NCBI GenBank assembly: GCA_013298775.1
Contig: JAAFIV010000008.1
Location: 31,028-95,027, forward strand
DNA length: 64,000 nt
Origin: Ignavibacteria bacterium
Lineage (GTDB): Bacteria; Bacteroidota; Ignavibacteria; Kapaibacteriales; UBA4661
Direction of reading: 5' to 3'
Shown here: in pieces, positions 4,150-17,915 of the stretch
How the letters are laid out: each line of letters begins with the position of its first letter
Numbering within the stretch: position 1 is the first letter of the stretch
Translations under genes and position numbers: made by a program
The notes under the pieces: model-generated
Database searches by the model: none
The model's input: only the letters and a program-made list of their open reading frames with translations
Told to the model about the DNA's origin: nothing

Positions 4150-5961
4150 ATGGCTAAACGACGTAACCACCGCCGCTCCGACGACGACACACCCAAACTT
4201 ACCCGCGAACAAACCCGCGCACAACTTGGATTTTTACTCACCTTTCTCGCGCCGCACAAGTGGCGCATTTCCTTCGCTCTTTTGGCACTCGTTCTCTCCA
4301 GTGCCGCATCATTGCTCTTTCCGAAAGCGATTGAACTCCTCATTGATGCCGTGCTGAATGAATCAACCGCGAAATATTCCGTTAGCCTTATTTTTGGCGG
4401 ATTGCTTGCGGTGCTATTTGTGCAGTCTGTCACGCGCTATTTTACCTCAATGTCGTTGGCAACGATTATCGAAAATACGCTTGCGAGCTTGCGCACAGAG
4501 CTTTTTGAGCGGATTATCCGATTACCAATGAGCTTTTTTGCTGAAAGACGTGTCGGGGAGCTATCTTCACGGCTTTCTTCGGATTTGTCGCTTGTGCAAG
4601 AAACCTTTACCTTTAGCGTTTTGGAATTGCTCCGCCAAATGGTCTTTTTTCTTGGAAGCGTCGTGCTTATTGCCTCCACGAGCATTCAGCTTACCGTGAT
4701 GATTCTGCTCGTGCTGCCCGTGATTGTGGCAATTGCGCTTGTCTTTGCAAAATTCATTCGCAAATACAGCACCAAAACGCAGGATGCCCTCGCTGAAGCC
4801 GCAACGATTGTCGAGGAGTCGCTCCAAGCCATTGCGGGCGTGAAATCGTTTGTGAATGAACGCTATGAAGCCACGCGCTATCACTCAGCGATTATGAATA
4901 CGGTCGGTTTGGCACTTTCTGGTGCGCGGATTCGCTCGGCGTTTGTGTCGTTTATTTTGATGGTGCTGTTTGGCGGAATCGCTGGTGTACTCTGGTACGG
5001 CGGCAGTTTGGTACGCTCTGGCGCAATGACGATGGGCGGCTTAACATCGTTCATCATTTACACAACGTTTGTGGGCGGTGCTTTGGGCAGTTTTGCGGAA
5101 TTATTTGGGCAAATCCAACGCACGCTCGGCGCGTCGGTGCGCATCCGTGAGATTTTAGAATCCGAACCAGAACTCTTGGATAAAACCAATAATGCTGGAG
5201 AAGGCGCACCGGTACGCCGTTTGCAGTCGGTGGAGTTTCAAAACATCCACTTCGCCTATCCTGGACGCAAGGATGTACCTGCCTTACAGAATGTTTCGTT
5301 TTCCATTGAATCGGGCAAGCGTGTAGCGTTTGTGGGAGAATCAGGTGCAGGAAAAAGCACGACGGCGGCGTTAATTCAAGGCTTCTACGCACCAGAGAGC
5401 GGACAGATGTTATTCGACGGCGAAGCCGCATCCAGCCTCAGTTTGCGGGAAATACGCGAAAGCGTTGGGATTGTGCCGCAAGATATTGTGCTGTTTGGCG
5501 GCACGATTGCAGAAAATATCCGCTATGGCAAGCTAAATGCAAGTGATGATGAGGTCTGGGAGGCGGCACGTTTGGCAAATGCGGCAGAATTTATCGAACA
5601 ATTCCCCGAAAAATTACAAACGCTGGTCGGCGAGCGAGGCGTGAAGCTCTCTGGCGGGCAACGTCAGCGCGTGGCGATTGCGCGGGCAATTTTGAAAAAT
5701 CCGCCCATGCTCATTTTGGATGAAGCAACCAGCTCGCTTGATTCCCAAACCGAACACCTCATTCAAGAAGCAATGGAGCGGCTTATGACGGGGCGTACAA
5801 CGATTATTATTGCGCACCGCCTTTCGACCATTCGTCGGTGCGATACGATTTTCGTCTTCAGCAAAGGAAAGATTGTCGAGTCGGGAACGCATGAATCCTT
5901 GCTTGCCGACCAAACGAGCTTTTATGCGAAGTTGTGCGCGTTGCAATTTGGCGAAGCCTGA
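4150..5961 (+). CDS. ABC exporter, fused TMD+NBD (MsbA/MdlB-like)
   Basis: Six TM segments, Walker A GESGAGKST, signature LSGGQRQR, Walker B LILDEATSSLD, H-loop IAHRLST. Confidence 0.92.
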   Translation: MAKRRNHRRSDDDTPKLTREQTRAQLGFLLTFLAPHKWRISFALLALVLSSAASLLFPKAIELLIDAVLNESTAKYSVSLIFGGLLAVLFVQSVTRYFTSMSLATIIENTLASLRTELFERIIRLPMSFFAERRVGELSSRLSSDLSLVQETFTFSVLELLRQMVFFLGSVVLIASTSIQLTVMILLVLPVIVAIALVFAKFIRKYSTKTQDALAEAATIVEESLQAIAGVKSFVNERYEATRYHSAIMNTVGLALSGARIRSAFVSFILMVLFGGIAGVLWYGGSLVRSGAMTMGGLTSFIIYTTFVGGALGSFAELFGQIQRTLGASVRIREILESEPELLDKTNNAGEGAPVRRLQSVEFQNIHFAYPGRKDVPALQNVSFSIESGKRVAFVGESGAGKSTTAALIQGFYAPESGQMLFDGEAASSLSLREIRESVGIVPQDIVLFGGTIAENIRYGKLNASDDEVWEAARLANAAEFIEQFPEKLQTLVGERGVKLSGGQRQRVAIARAILKNPPMLILDEATSSLDSQTEHLIQEAMERLMTGRTTIIIAHRLSTIRRCDTIFVFSKGKIVESGTHESLLADQTSFYAKLCALQFGEA

Positions 5962-13247: not shown

Positions 13248-15461
13248 TCAAAACTTCACCGTCGCCGTCGCGCCAATAAATACAAACTGCCTGTTCAAAC
13301 TCACATTTGCCTCGCGCTTGGAATAATCGGCTGAATACGTGTACCCAAGCACGTTTGCGCGTCCTGTGGCATTGGAAAGTGAGGCGAAAATGACCATAAA
13401 TGCTTTGTCGTTCAGGGGAAGAAAGTAGGAAACATCGGCATCGAAGCGCATTTGGTCGGGAAGCCGCTCCGAGCCTACGCTTCCATCTATCGGCTCGAAC
13501 CACGTGTATTGCCCTTCCACAAAGCGCATTCCACCCACAATCGGCGTGGTTGCTCGTCCTGTCGAATATCGTGCCGTTGTGCCAACACTCAAGCCTTCCC
13601 ACACGCGAACTTTGCCCACAAGCACGATATTATGCCGAATGTCAAACGGCGTTGCGCCTTCTTCATAGACAATTCCTTGCTCCGTGCGTCGTGCTTGCAG
13701 ACGATTCGTCTCCAAAAACGAGTAGGAAAGCCATCCGTTGAAATCGGTTTTGAGATATTCGCCATATTTTGCAAAAAAGTCTAGCCCGCGAGCGTAACCA
13801 TAGCCAAGATTTTGCGGAATGCCGCTCGTTGTCGGTAGAATCAGGTTTGCGTAGGTTTTGTTGTATGCTTCGGCACGAATTTGCGCATCGCCTTCGGTGT
13901 ATTCTGCGCCCAGAATGTAGTGCGTTGCTTGTTGGGCTTTCAATTCAGGGTTGCCACCAAGCGCGGTATTGAGCTGTTCGGGGCGACCGAATTGGTGAAA
14001 AATTCCCCACGCAGCGCGAAGGTTGAAACTCGGCGCGAACACGTACTTCAGCGATACACGTGGGTCGAACACGAGGTTTTGCGCGAGTGTTTGGTAATCG
14101 CTACGAATCCCAACGCCCGCCAAAAGATTTCGTGTGAGTTTCATTTCCGCTTCCACATAGCCACCAAGCCGCACTGCTCCTCCTTTGGAGGAAAATCGCT
14201 CCTCCGCGCTGCCTTGGTTGCGGATAATCTTTGTGCCTTCCAATTCGTCGTATTCTGCTTCCACGCCCGCCAGAATGCGCACCCAATCCGAGAGGTCTTT
14301 TTCAGCATCGGTGCGGCTTTTGAGGTTAATTTGTTGCGTAAGAATACCAAAGCTGGCTTCATCAATGGTGTTGCGAATAACATTCGCCGAAAGGCTTGAC
14401 TTTATCACCCATTCCTGCCAAACGTCGGTGATTTGGATATTGTGAATGGTATTCGTTTGTGCGGTTTTGAAAAGATTTTTATCCGCGCCTAAGCCATAGA
14501 ATGTGGACAAACCATTGCTTGAGCCGTAGTTAAAAAACTTTATTTTGCCCGTCGGCGAATACTTCCACACAAGGCTGACGTTAGCGTCAATCGAAGTCGG
14601 TGGTTCGTTGAATTGCGTTCGTAAACCATTCAAGCGAAAAAGCAAATCGGTGTTGGAATAATTCCCCGATGCGCGGATGCCAAGCGTTCCGGGAAGCAGT
14701 TCCGACGCGCCTCCCAGCGAGACACCACCTGTGGAAAGTGTGCCGTTGAATTGATTACCTGTCGGCATTCCCAGTCCTTCCAATGCCACCACGCCAGAGA
14801 GCGCATTTCCGTAGCGAGCCGGCATACCGCCGCTTGAGAAGAAGGTGCCGCTCACAAAAAAGGGTGGAATAAACCCAAACGTGCCGCCATTGGGCGCAGC
14901 AGCGCGGTAGGGCGAGGTAACGCTGGCTTGGTCAATGAGCGTAATTGTTTCGGTGAGGTCGCCGCCGCGTACAATCAGCCCAGAACCTTCGTCGGGTGAG
15001 GTTACGCCCGGAAAAGTCTGCAAAGCGCGGAAAATATCTGCCGCCGCACCAGGCGTGGTCAAGATTTCAAGCGGTTTCAAGGTTACGCCTTCCACTTCGC
15101 CCGATGTAAATGCGCTGGCGGAAACGGTCGCGCCTTTCAGATTCACGACTTTGGTCAGAAGGTGAATAGCAATGCGGGTTGTGTCGCCCTCAAGCAGGAT
15201 TTCTTGTTCAAACGCCTCGTAGGCGAGGTTCTTAATAGCAAGTATTTGTGCGCCTTTGAGGTCGGTTGTGATTGTGAACATACCCTTTGAATTTGTTACC
15301 CCACCTATTTTCGTGCCTTTCATTTTTACGCTGATATAGCCAAGCGAGTCGCCACGCTCATTCATCACAACACCAGTGATGATGCGCTTTGCGGGTTGGG
15401 CATGAAGTGTACTGGTGCTGCACAGTGCGATAATTGCTAAAAGTTGTAGTAATATCCGCAT
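13248..15461 (-). CDS. TonB-dependent receptor with N-terminal carboxypeptidase-regulatory-like domain
   Basis: Signal peptide MRILLQ...TLHAQ, plug motifs (LQTFPGV, GLIVRGGD, ARYGNALSGVV), beta-barrel strands, C-terminal F. Confidence 0.9.
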   Translation of the reverse strand: MRILLQLLAIIALCSTSTLHAQPAKRIITGVVMNERGDSLGYISVKMKGTKIGGVTNSKGMFTITTDLKGAQILAIKNLAYEAFEQEILLEGDTTRIAIHLLTKVVNLKGATVSASAFTSGEVEGVTLKPLEILTTPGAAADIFRALQTFPGVTSPDEGSGLIVRGGDLTETITLIDQASVTSPYRAAAPNGGTFGFIPPFFVSGTFFSSGGMPARYGNALSGVVALEGLGMPTGNQFNGTLSTGGVSLGGASELLPGTLGIRASGNYSNTDLLFRLNGLRTQFNEPPTSIDANVSLVWKYSPTGKIKFFNYGSSNGLSTFYGLGADKNLFKTAQTNTIHNIQITDVWQEWVIKSSLSANVIRNTIDEASFGILTQQINLKSRTDAEKDLSDWVRILAGVEAEYDELEGTKIIRNQGSAEERFSSKGGAVRLGGYVEAEMKLTRNLLAGVGIRSDYQTLAQNLVFDPRVSLKYVFAPSFNLRAAWGIFHQFGRPEQLNTALGGNPELKAQQATHYILGAEYTEGDAQIRAEAYNKTYANLILPTTSGIPQNLGYGYARGLDFFAKYGEYLKTDFNGWLSYSFLETNRLQARRTEQGIVYEEGATPFDIRHNIVLVGKVRVWEGLSVGTTARYSTGRATTPIVGGMRFVEGQYTWFEPIDGSVGSERLPDQMRFDADVSYFLPLNDKAFMVIFASLSNATGRANVLGYTYSADYSKREANVSLNRQFVFIGATATVKF

Positions 15462-15542
15462 GATTGTTCTCCAAAAGCTGTTCGTATCGTTGTAACTATA
15501 CGCAAGATACGGTGCGGTTTTGGAAGGTGTTGCAGAGCTTTC

Positions 15543-15597
15543 GACGAATTGCAGGAATGGAAGGACGAGTTGCGGGAGCGGGCGGTGAAGTGGTGGG
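15543..15597 (-). promoter_or_regulatory. Candidate LytTR-type operator: direct repeats at 21-bp period upstream of the TonB-dependent receptor
   Basis: On the + strand: gacgaattgcagg (15543), gacgagttgcggg (15564) and degenerate gtgaagtggtggg (15585). Confidence 0.45.
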
Positions 15598-15708
15598 AAT
15601 GGTAGGGGAAATATCATTGCAGAGAACCACAAAAGAGCGTATTTTTGTAGTGCATTTACCACACCTTTTTACCGTAAAAATTGGTATTCTTGAAATTCAG
15701 TCCAAACA

Positions 15709-16140
15709 ATGACCACCCCAACAGAAATCCGAGCAATAGCTGATTTGCGTATGGAGGAAGCAGAATTGCTCTTTTTGCATCAGAAATACGATGGCGCGTT
15801 TTATTTGGCAGGCTATAAACTGGAACTTTACCTGAAAGCAAAAATTTGTGAATGCTTGAATCTTGATGATTTCTATTCGATTCACGCTCCTAAAAGCGAG
15901 TTATCAAAAACATTTCTTGTTCACAATTTTAATCGGTTATTCCTTCTTTCAGGAGTACATCAACAATTTGAACAGGAGAAAACAACGCAGAAACATTTGA
16001 CCTCCGCTTGGTCTTGTATTTCTGAGGCTGCTTGGAGCGAAAGCATTCGCTATGATTCCAGTGGCAAGCGTGACGACTGTACAGTTCGTGATTTTATGAA
16101 CGCTATCAATACAATATCACAATGGATACTCGAACATTAA
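15709..16140 (+). CDS. HEPN-domain protein (putative RNase toxin)
   Basis: ADLRMEEAELLF...YDGAFYLAGYKLELYLKAKI, KTFLVHNFNRL (conserved His), W-x-E-x-x-RY; all-helical, 143 aa. Confidence 0.8.
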   Translation: MTTPTEIRAIADLRMEEAELLFLHQKYDGAFYLAGYKLELYLKAKICECLNLDDFYSIHAPKSELSKTFLVHNFNRLFLLSGVHQQFEQEKTTQKHLTSAWSCISEAAWSESIRYDSSGKRDDCTVRDFMNAINTISQWILEH

Positions 16141-16487
16141 CACAAAATAAACTCAAAGTGGAATTACAAAAGGTCATCAATGCTTTTGAGCAAGAAGGCA
16201 GACCGCTTGAATTTGTCGGCATTGCACCTCTTTATCTCCAACTACTTAACACATCGTATGTTGTTCAGGTATATGCTGCGTGGCTTGATGAAATGAGTAA
16301 TTGCAATGATGCACTCAATCTTGTAATTGATAAATTATACGAACTCTTGAGCGCAGACGTGCTGCGATACATTAACCGAGTCAATATTATCTCCGATAGC
16401 GGTGAAGTTCATTGTACCTCAAAAGGGCTTATTTTGAATAAGCCTGAATTTGAGACCTTAACAGAGCCTTTTGACTATACTGCATGA
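16122..16487 (+). CDS. Hypothetical protein overlapping the HEPN gene (putative antitoxin, possibly degenerate nucleotidyltransferase fold)
   Basis: 121-aa acidic ORF whose ATG lies 19 nt inside the HEPN gene. It has an alpha/beta pattern but no GSxA/DxD motif. Confidence 0.65.
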   Translation: MDTRTLTQNKLKVELQKVINAFEQEGRPLEFVGIAPLYLQLLNTSYVVQVYAAWLDEMSNCNDALNLVIDKLYELLSADVLRYINRVNIISDSGEVHCTSKGLILNKPEFETLTEPFDYTA

Positions 16488-16520
16488 CTACTTTACTGCT
16501 TGATTTGGAGTAAAATTATC

Positions 16521-16982
16521 ATGCTTGAAAATATTATCCTCAACGACATTAAAATTGCAATAGAAATTTGGGGTGAAGATTTGGATGAACAGGTAAAAGA
16601 ATGGCACAAAGTGGAGAAAAATACTGACACGCACTCTCTACAAACTGCACCGATACAAATACAAACGCTTCAGACGTTACAAGCGATTCAAAACTTGAAA
16701 CAATCTTCGGTACAATTCAAACTGTTCCTCACAAAACTCGCGCCTCACCTCCGCCCAGATTTTATGCCATCGGTGACTGTCGATAACGAAGGAGAATTTA
16801 TTTTTGAATGGTACGGACGGCAGGGAGCGCGGGCGAGTGTGATTGTTGGTGCAAATGGTGCGCTCTATTTTGTTTCACTTTTTCACGGTACGTCTATCAA
16901 ATCTCGCTTGCTGTGGAATAACGATATTCCGCCACTTATCCTCACAGAACTTGATAAAATCTACAAGGACAAGCAAGCATGA
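16521..16982 (+). CDS. Hypothetical protein (putative antitoxin) with PSVTVDNEGEFIFEW motif
   Basis: GGAG RBS at 16507-16510 precedes ATG 16521. ATGA overlap with the next gene. Confidence 0.7.
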   Translation: MLENIILNDIKIAIEIWGEDLDEQVKEWHKVEKNTDTHSLQTAPIQIQTLQTLQAIQNLKQSSVQFKLFLTKLAPHLRPDFMPSVTVDNEGEFIFEWYGRQGARASVIVGANGALYFVSLFHGTSIKSRLLWNNDIPPLILTELDKIYKDKQA

Positions 16983-17401
16983 ATCAAGCCTGTAATTACG
17001 ATTCTCCCTACGAAATTGGACGCTTTTTGCGAAAGGAATGGCTCAAAGAGAATAACTCTCGCATCCATGCAAATGCCTTCATGCCGCCAGAGAAAATTGG
17101 CTCTCGGTTAGAAGTCTCTTGCTTTGAAGTACAAATGCTCGATCACGCACAAATCCTTGATTTAGCGGATAAAAATGACCCACCGATTCTACCGAATAAT
17201 AGACCGCCTGTTGGCTATGGCGTAATTCCTGAAGCAGAATTCTCCAAAACCGCTTGTAATCTTGATTTTGACAATACTCCGCCGCGCCACGTGAACATCA
17301 AAGGTTGGGAGAATTTCCCAAACAAAGAAGACAAGCAACTGCAAGCCAGCATCCTCGCCGAAGCCGCATCACAACACATTTTTCTTCGCCCGTACCCTTA
17401 G
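16979..17401 (+). CDS. Hypothetical protein with ADP-ribosyltransferase-like residue pattern (putative toxin)
   Basis: GRFL...NAFMPP...LEVSCF...PPRHVNIKGW; ATGA-coupled to the upstream gene. The fold assignment is inference. Confidence 0.6.
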   Translation: MNQACNYDSPYEIGRFLRKEWLKENNSRIHANAFMPPEKIGSRLEVSCFEVQMLDHAQILDLADKNDPPILPNNRPPVGYGVIPEAEFSKTACNLDFDNTPPRHVNIKGWENFPNKEDKQLQASILAEAASQHIFLRPYP

Positions 17402-17456: not shown

Positions 17457-17915
17457 ATGAACATCGCATCAAAACTCGTATGGAGAGCTGTTGTTGCTTT
17501 CTTTCTCGTGATTTTTTCAGCAAGCGATACTTTTGCACAAGAACCAGTAGAAAAGGTTCTTCGCGCCGTCTTGGACGAGCAAGTACAAGCCTGGAACGCA
17601 GGGAAAATCGAAGAATTTATGCAGGGCTATTGGGCATCAGATTCCTTGCGCTTTGCTTCTGGTGGAACGGTGAAACGTGGGTGGCAAGTGACGTTGGAAC
17701 GGTATCAAAAAAGCTATCCAAACAGAGCAGCAATGGGTGTTCTGAGTTTTACCGAACTTGAATACACCGTACTTTCAGCCGATGCCGCGCTCGTCTTTGG
17801 TAAGTGGCGGCTTCAACGCGAGAAAGACACGCCCAATGGCTTGTTTACGCTCACGTTTCGGAAAACTGCGCAAGGCTGGAAAATTATCCACGACCACACT
17901 TCGTCGGGGAATTGA
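17457..17915 (+). CDS. Secreted DUF4440 / NTF2-like protein
   Basis: Signal peptide; QVQAWNAGKIEEFMQGYW, RYQKSYP...MGVLSF, GLFTLTF...GWKIIHDHTS. Confidence 0.9.
   Translation: MNIASKLVWRAVVAFFLVIFSASDTFAQEPVEKVLRAVLDEQVQAWNAGKIEEFMQGYWASDSLRFASGGTVKRGWQVTLERYQKSYPNRAAMGVLSFTELEYTVLSADAALVFGKWRLQREKDTPNGLFTLTFRKTAQGWKIIHDHTSSGN

Follow-up and report, generated by a model that had tools for sequence, protein, structure and literature searches.

A coupled gene pair at 16521-17401

The stretch of DNA analysed here, referred to as the window, comprises 64,000 nucleotides of contig JAAFIV010000008.1 from an Ignavibacteria bacterium and holds, at 16521-17401 of the forward strand, two coupled genes called B' and C. 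Gene B' (16521-16982, forward strand) starts with ATG and encodes a protein of 153 residues that carries PSVTVDNEGEFIFEWYG, i.e., the EGEFIFEW motif; as discussed below, it is best described as the N-terminally truncated middle gene of a cassette. Gene C (16979-17401, forward strand) encodes a candidate effector enzyme of 140 residues with the segments EIGRF, NAFMPP, LEVSCFEV and PPRHVNIKGW. According to the coordinates of the open reading frames (ORFs), the stop of B' and the start of C overlap in the tetranucleotide ATGA at 16979-16982 of the same strand, and an identical 4-nt overlap joins B and C in the relatives L001, L005 and L008. An earlier note on this DNA, written from the sequence alone, had described an ATGA-coupled pair with a set of short motifs, and both ORFs, the overlap and every motif that it quoted are present.

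A GGAG sequence sits 10 nt 5' of the ATG of B'; an alternative start, an in-frame TTG at 16500, would yield a protein of 160 residues. Thirteen close homologues of B' (193-205 residues) and six of C (60-76% identity) were found, one of the latter in a Kapaibacteriota metagenome-assembled genome, and an exhaustive profile search extended the C family to 113 cluster representatives of 84-172 residues each at E<=1e-3. Pairwise ratios of nonsynonymous to synonymous substitution rates (dN/dS) against these relatives are 0.12-0.17 for C and 0.12-0.30 for B', with saturated dS. Because homologues exist and dN/dS falls in the range 0.12-0.30 (at saturated dS), B' and C are, as judged from sequence comparison, real genes and go beyond chance ORFs. 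Neither of the two proteins of the window has any match in Pfam, NCBIfam or PADLOC (the last searched at E<=1).

A three-gene cassette in many phyla

The earlier note had treated the pair as a two-gene system. The loci of close relatives, the DNA alignment described below and a scan of 80 loci instead identify it as the truncated end of a three-gene cassette, A-B-C, led by a gene of the family TIGR04255. In the close relatives the order A-B-C, with overlapping stops and starts, is found on every contig; here, A has 238-273, B 203-205 and C 128-138 residues, and A matches the NCBIfam model TIGR04255 with E-values from 6e-25 to 7e-33. This family is the only one that the A proteins match, since no Pfam family (SecB included) and no sequence in the PDB was found for them, and TIGR04255 is not mentioned in the papers of the literature collection that was searched.

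For the wider scan, one genome per species was searched with the motif RHANI[IVL]GWP, taken from a sub-alignment of 14 C sequences. Of the 96 stretches obtained, 80 loci were kept and analysed by ORF calling and iterated hidden Markov models (HMMs). These loci span Thermodesulfobacteriota, Nitrospirota, Planctomycetota, Ignavibacteria/Chlorobi, Gemmatimonadota, Acidobacteriota, Verrucomicrobiota, Proteobacteria, Spirochaetota, Chloroflexota and others. An ORF of the B family is present in 75 of the 80 loci, and in three of the other five C lies at a contig end. Where both ORFs were called, B is located immediately 5' of C in 71 of 72 loci, the sole exception being L052 (1807-3974), in which a minus-strand gene of 494 codons lies between B and C. 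An orphan C with no B upstream is found in L067 (1534-1941). The third component varies more: a TIGR04255 gene is located immediately 5' of B in 53 of the 80 loci, in one of which (L049, 2744-3988) A and B are fused into one ORF of 414 codons; in about ten loci another ORF of 208-240 codons, which has no Pfam or NCBIfam match, abuts B; and about 8-12 loci have no co-oriented partner for B-C. From these counts it becomes apparent that B-C is the constant core of the cassette, while A, the third part, is often present but can be replaced.

The window fits this description in its core, i.e., a protein with the PDGEI-FEW domain is encoded directly 5' of, and coupled to, a protein of the C family, and it departs from it in that no TIGR04255 gene is found directly 5' of B'. 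That the pair at 16521-17401 belongs to the A-B-C cassette family can be regarded as nearly certain.

The substitution of TIGR04255 by the gene of 208-240 codons is seen in a group of loci centred on Desulfobacterota (L039, L040, L042, L044, L047, L048 and L053, and also L028, L064 and L084). In this subgroup B has a longer N-terminal part, with about 97 residues ahead of WDGY.

Protein B and its shortened form in the window

Alignment of the wide B family defines three regions: a variable N-terminal segment, about 45 residues long and marked by a "G-S" motif; next to it a helical region that ends in NWDGYGA, a motif missing in the Kapaibacteria clade; and a conserved domain with the pattern PDGEI-FEW ... 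YAG-FG ... HG. The B' protein lacks about 56 N-terminal residues that are found in its close homologues of 193-205 residues, and in the family alignment it begins right behind the N-terminal segment and retains the remainder, i.e., the helical region and the conserved C-terminal domain, NEGEFIFEW...GANGALYFVSLFHG. No Pfam match other than noise was obtained for B' or for 29 members of the B family, and in particular neither an Xre-type helix-turn-helix (HTH) domain nor DUF2384 was found; PDB sequence searches with the B profile and with the A profile likewise returned noise or nothing.

The length of the N-terminal part of B varies with the presence of A. The number of residues ahead of WDGY has a median of 68 where A is present and of 48 in the partnerless loci, in several of which it is just 15-36, and several loci without A carry an N-terminally short B of 112-137 residues. 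Natural A-less pairs with an N-terminally short B therefore exist. These lengths are consistent with a link between the N-terminal segment of B and gene A, but are not proof of it. The idea that this segment is a docking motif shared with the middle proteins of other TIGR04255 cassettes was dropped: an HMM of the segment matched B-family proteins only, so that the idea is unsupported at the sensitivity of such a search.

As a separate observation, the proteins of the Kapaibacteria clade combine a B that lacks NWDGYGA with a C that is acidic to neutral, such that both partners seem to have been altered together.

Replacement of gene A and of the 5' end of gene B

A direct comparison is provided by the relative L008, in which a full A-B-C cassette adjoins a homologue of the TonB-dependent receptor gene of the window. 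In the window this receptor gene (13248-15662, reverse strand) forms the left syntenic anchor. Homology between the two DNA sequences is found at the 5' end of the receptor gene, is absent from about 15610 to 16540, and sets in again at about 16545 to extend as far as the stop of C, which places the right-hand recombination junction at 16488-16545, inside gene B. The intervening segment holds two co-oriented genes. The first (15709-16140, forward strand) encodes a protein of 143 residues in the place of gene A and has a weakly HEPN-like N-terminus (Pfam HEPN, E=0.02, residues 9-48; PADLOC PDC-M28A, E=0.02, nearly full length; both below threshold). The second (16122-16487, forward strand) overlaps the first by 19 nt, stands where the 3' end of A and the 5' end of B would be expected and encodes an acidic orphan protein of 121 residues (isoelectric point, pI, 4.6), for which no homologue besides itself was found among 5.8 billion proteins.

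Neither protein has any similarity to A, B or C in BLASTP or hhalign comparisons, and a six-frame search detected no TIGR04255 gene anywhere in the source genome. The possibility that the two ORFs, the lengths of which sum to nearly that of A, are a diverged or frameshifted A was considered and rejected, as BLASTP, hhalign and the six-frame TIGR04255 search gave no signal. The alignment with L008, the unrelated ORFs and the genome devoid of TIGR04255 together indicate that A was replaced along with the 5' end of B, and loss of A and of the B N-terminus by such a replacement is very probable.

The four-gene island (15600-17400) has a G+C content of 0.37-0.44, compared to about 0.50 in the genes on either side, the TonB-receptor gene and those downstream. 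Of 41 related genomes a single one has gene C, and all eight from the same genus lack it; these eight retain the receptor gene, but its neighbours differ and the island is absent. No flanking direct repeats, att-like sites or terminators were found above background around the island. In the same-genus genomes, the DUF4440 gene (17457-17915 in the window) and the gene for a protein of 702 residues are found on contigs apart from that of the receptor gene, and the junction is therefore variable.

The shared reading frame of the inserted ORF and B' raises the question of whether a new unit was formed. The 121-codon ORF at 16122-16487 and B' at 16521-16982 share one frame, with just one TGA (16485-16487) and 11 codons between them. 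All four co-oriented genes at 15709-17401 could thus be read as a chimeric unit in which the 121-residue protein and B' are, now or until recently, one adaptor that links the HEPN-like protein to C. Such an arrangement has parallels: the middle proteins of TIGR04255 cassettes have a modular build, L049 carries a fusion of A with B, and in PDC-M32A a B-like C-terminus forms part of a longer protein. A shared frame is, however, expected in one of three cases by chance, the orphan without homologues offers no fused relative, and the HEPN similarity remains below threshold, so that a chimeric unit is very improbable.

A second alternative is that the pair is a decaying, non-functional remnant, in which the promoter, A and the start of B have been removed while B' and C are not yet broken. 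This reading is in line with the absence of A from the genome, with a B' that is short by about 56 residues and with the result that no promoter-like site above shuffled background was found upstream. In addition, an unneutralized toxin would be intolerable, and silence or inactivity would be a simple route to survival after the truncation. Yet neither frame is broken, and no family-invariant residue has been lost. The dN/dS values of pairs that include the window sequences (0.12-0.30) are not above those between relatives, although at saturated dS a recent event would stay invisible. Furthermore, the ATG of B' is preceded by GGAG and the full conserved domain follows it, natural A-less loci with a short B exist, and the co-oriented upstream unit may allow read-through into the pair. 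Decay of the whole pair is thus considered rather unlikely.

Conserved residues and predicted fold of protein C

The earlier note had singled out an Arg, a Ser and a His of C as putative catalytic residues. Among 139 distinct members of the C family these residues are among the most conserved, R15 in 128 of 132, S47 in 137 of 138 and H104 in 139 of 139, and near-invariance over this set makes them a signature of the family. R103 (134 of 139) and W110 (137 of 139) are conserved to a similar degree, as are F34, P36, P101 and N106, and position 15 is occupied by His in two close relatives. The C protein of the window keeps all family-invariant residues. Pfam gave no match at E<=1 for this protein and none at E<=0.1, RES (PF08808) included, for 59 members of the family, and a PDB sequence search with the C profile returned noise or nothing.

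With an alignment of 59 sequences, AlphaFold yielded a model of C with a mean predicted local distance difference test score (pLDDT) of 94.4 and a predicted template modelling score (pTM) of 0.88, compared to a pLDDT of 37 with the seven close homologues. The model has six strands of at least three residues (12-17, 46-50, 79-84, 94-96, 104-108 and 134-136) and helices at 31-34, 56-65, 85-90 and 116-131. The Arg and Ser had been proposed to lie on strands, and the model agrees: R15 is placed in strand 1 (12-17) and S47 in strand 2 (46-50), while H104 is the first residue of strand 5, where the numbering refers to sequential order only. In the clan of ADP-ribosyltransferases (ARTs), the sheet is split into strands 4-5-2 and 1-3-6, and the catalytic triad is drawn from strand 1, strand 2 and the front edge of strand 5 (PMC7955679). 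The sequential layout of R15, S47 and H104 on strands 1, 2 and 5 therefore fits that of an ART in which His replaces Glu. Of the ART-type arrangement that the earlier note had suggested, the sequential placement of the three residues thus stands, whereas the search of the PDB with Foldseek gave no significant ART match.

Three results weigh against an ART assignment. First, the triads described for ARTs are H-Y-[EDQ], R-[ST]-E (PMC7955679) and H-H-hydrophobic, and the putative R-S-H triad of C, with His in the third position, matches none of these three clades. Second, the Foldseek search of the C model against the PDB returned zero matches at E<=1e-3, all E-values being at least 0.038. The top matches are heterogeneous (RNA polymerase I, gyrase, eIF1 and KptA), and the only ART-fold entries in the list are KptA/Tpt1 structures. 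The best compact match is KptA/Tpt1 9ld4_A (TM-score 0.41, root-mean-square deviation 4.3 Å, 101 columns, probability 0.20), and the second such structure is 7kw8 (TM-score 0.34); both have E-values of 1.7-2.1 and probabilities of 0.13-0.20, i.e., below significance. Third, in hhalign comparisons based on alignments built from genome hits, the C profile reached a probability of only 0.3% against RES (19 RES proteins) and 0.5% against Tpt1. In a control comparison of Tpt1 with RES, two true ART families, the probability was 1%; this control is equally blind, and hhalign therefore excludes membership in these families but not the fold. The more specific suggestion that C is RES-like did not survive these searches: neither the protein of the window nor the 59 members match PF08808, the hhalign probability is 0.3%, and the partner lacks Xre features, for which reasons C as a RES-domain protein was rejected.

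The same data may be read in terms of a new, non-ART fold, where C would still be the effector of the cassette but would, for example, carry out phosphotransfer or hydrolysis on RNA or a nucleotide by means of R103-H104 and S47, the R/S/H spacing being coincidental. A pLDDT of 94 without any PDB match at E<=1e-3, the heterogeneity of the top matches, a Foldseek search against BFVD in which nothing was significant, and the lack of profile similarity to RES or Tpt1 all fit this reading, as do the invariant adjacent R103-H104 and W110, which have no counterpart in the ART motifs. It accounts less well for conserved residues that fall on strands 1, 2 and 5 in ART order and for two independent KptA/Tpt1 structures as the best small-domain matches. 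ART families, moreover, are notoriously hard to detect by sequence, as the Tpt1-RES positive control of 1% also illustrates. A non-ART fold is therefore a real, if somewhat lesser, possibility. Because there is no significant PDB match and KptA/Tpt1 structures align at TM-scores of only 0.34-0.41, an ART fold is plausible at most; on the basis of the model, an ART-like fold of C is put forward tentatively, and NAD+-dependent chemistry by this protein would have to be called doubtful.

Evidence for a proposed toxin-antidote relation

The earlier note had proposed the upstream protein as the partner and cognate inhibitor of C. Across the family the gene adjacency (71 of 72 loci) and the contrast between an acidic B (median pI 5.0) and a basic C (median pI 8.7) give good grounds for a partnership and would fit an inhibitor. 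The position of C in the cassette is also informative. Within the phylum, 24 of 401 genomes contain TIGR04255 genes, and two small, coupled genes usually come after them. Among ten third genes of other TIGR04255 cassettes, one encodes MazF/PemK (L103, 2479-2862, E 4e-13), one a weakly HEPN-like protein (L099, 2788-3153) and one a DUF7689 protein (L104, 2644-3069, E 4e-36), while seven belong to no family. Because of the adjacency and coupling, the family-wide charge contrast, the sporadic distribution and foreign composition, the presence of MazF in the corresponding slot and the weak matches to PDC-M32 (see below), a toxin-antidote relation between C and B appears rather likely.

Mobile elements add a few instances. 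One viral contig in IMG/VR bears a full A-B-C, while the Kapaibacteria-type B has no match in IMG/VR, and a tblastn search with a consensus-like C found no match in plasmid and phage collections. A solo B core of 97 residues, 73% identical to B', is encoded at 5001-5294 of locus L178 (Logan contig SRR31089939_44840), a phage-like contig of 8 kb that holds neither a C-family nor a TIGR04255 gene. It does encode a tail-fibre homologue with matches in 685 phage records and holin-like small membrane proteins, and it has a gene common to Bdellovibrio and crAss-like phages. This solo B core may be a phage-encoded antidote, as suggested by its sequence context in this single case.

A reading of B-C as a small housekeeping or regulatory pair of an enzyme and its partner, rather than a conflict system, would accommodate the acidic C proteins of the close clade and the absence of a consensus-like C from sequenced plasmids and phages. 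It is difficult to reconcile with a gene that a single one of 41 related genomes has and that all eight of the same genus lack, with varying genomic contexts and the low G+C content of the island, or with an architecture common to MazF-bearing TIGR04255 cassettes and found as a complete triad on a viral contig. A housekeeping role is for these reasons very improbable.

Comparison with known systems

The only database models with any similarity to B or C are those of PDC-M32, a PADLOC phage-defence candidate that appears merely as a hypothetical candidate in the literature (PMC12429752). The C-terminal third of PDC-M32A weakly matches B proteins of the wide family (E 1.5e-5 to 6e-3), and PDC-M32B weakly matches one C protein of the family over nearly its full length (E 3.2e-4). 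PDC-M32 is likewise a pair of a partner and a small protein. The systems differ in that PDC-M32A, with 375 positions, has another N-terminal part and the PDC-M32 model set includes no TIGR04255 gene.

A tripartite organization is also known from the CmdTAC system and other toxin-antitoxin-chaperone (TAC) systems. These consist of three genes (PMC11618068; bioRxiv 10.1101/2024.02.24.581848), which encode a small toxin (in CmdTAC an ADP-ribosyltransferase), an antitoxin that has an additional, separable segment, and a further protein that acts on this antitoxin; TAC systems are sporadic, as is the cassette, and are linked to defence. The differences are as follows: the third TAC component is a SecB-like chaperone, whereas A is a TIGR04255 protein without Pfam or PDB match and the window has no third component at all, the order A-B-C differs from that of TAC, and C has no detectable similarity to ARTs of the CmdT type.

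The RES-Xre systems (MbcTA, PrsTA), ParST and DarTG resemble the pair as proposed here, in that a small cytoplasmic enzyme goes with a putative, translationally coupled neutralizer encoded upstream and conserved residues are contributed by strands 1, 2 and 5. In contrast, C has no match to PF08808 or to any ART family of Pfam (59 members) and carries His rather than Glu as the third residue, and B has neither an Xre HTH domain nor a macrodomain. KptA/Tpt1 (PF01885, the H-H-h clade of ARTs) is the best compact structural match of C and belongs to a clade that also lacks the catalytic Glu, but C has neither its N-terminal winged-helix lobe nor the context of its R-H-R-R tetrad, and the match is below significance. 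Type II toxin-antitoxin (TA) systems in general are resembled in the adjacent, coupled small genes. Their combination of an acidic partner with a basic toxin is seen in the family medians of the pI, 5.0 (B) and 8.7 (C), but the C protein of the window has a pI of 5.5.

Proposed explanation and its implications

The observations discussed above may be combined in the following explanation. The pair at 16521-17401 is what survives, as a B-C core, of a mobile cassette whose three genes encode a TIGR04255-family protein (A), an acidic "WDGY...PDGEI-FEW" partner (B) and a small enzyme-like protein (C); in this genome recombination swapped A and the first approximately 56 codons of B for an unrelated two-gene unit and left the C-terminal domain of B' and C intact. 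Protein C would act as the effector, i.e., the toxin, and the C-terminal domain of B would neutralize it by direct binding, as in type II TA systems, while A would be an accessory regulator or sensor that acts through the N-terminal segment of B. As to the chemistry, C could be a minimal ADP-ribosyltransferase-like enzyme, in which R15, S47 and H104 bind NAD+ and cleave it or transfer its ADP-ribose, with H104 standing in for the usual catalytic Glu. Taken as a whole, i.e., a B-C core remnant with a toxin-antidote relation and ART-like chemistry, this explanation has about an even chance of being correct.

In addition to the fold and profile data and the missing promoter signal, several points count against this explanation. 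The C proteins of the Kapaibacteria clade (P0001-P0007), that of the window included, have pI values of 4.7-6.8 and thus depart from the basic family median. The B' and C proteins of the window themselves give no match to PDC-M32 at E<=1. The solo B core of L178 is a single case. Finally, with A missing and B' devoid of the N-terminal segment, the copy in the window may be inactive.

A bolder extension of the explanation would make C the founder of a minimal "R-S-H" ART-like clade and the toxic component of an unpublished, widely distributed tripartite system for defence or addiction under the control of TIGR04255 proteins, with the window as a natural deletion experiment and the B core of L178 as a means to disarm the system; this extension is unlikely. 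If it were true, the PDGEI-FEW domain of B alone would suffice to restrain C, and a separable trigger module would be formed by A and the N-terminal segment of B.

By itself, the locus does not amount to a discovery but is of use as a data point, being a family member in truncated form. The family is apparently an undescribed variant of toxin-antitoxin-type modules, of which the window contains a naturally truncated member. If the proposed relation holds, the B-C pair would be part of a phylum-spanning conflict module built from three families without published function. Protein C combines a confidently predicted fold that has no solved relative with an invariant Arg, Ser and Arg-His, and it could represent a new toxin chemistry or a new ART clade. 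The copy in the window, which has lost A and the N-terminus of B yet keeps the B core and C intact and apparently under constraint, suggests a division of the cassette into a minimal toxin-antidote core and a regulatory add-on.

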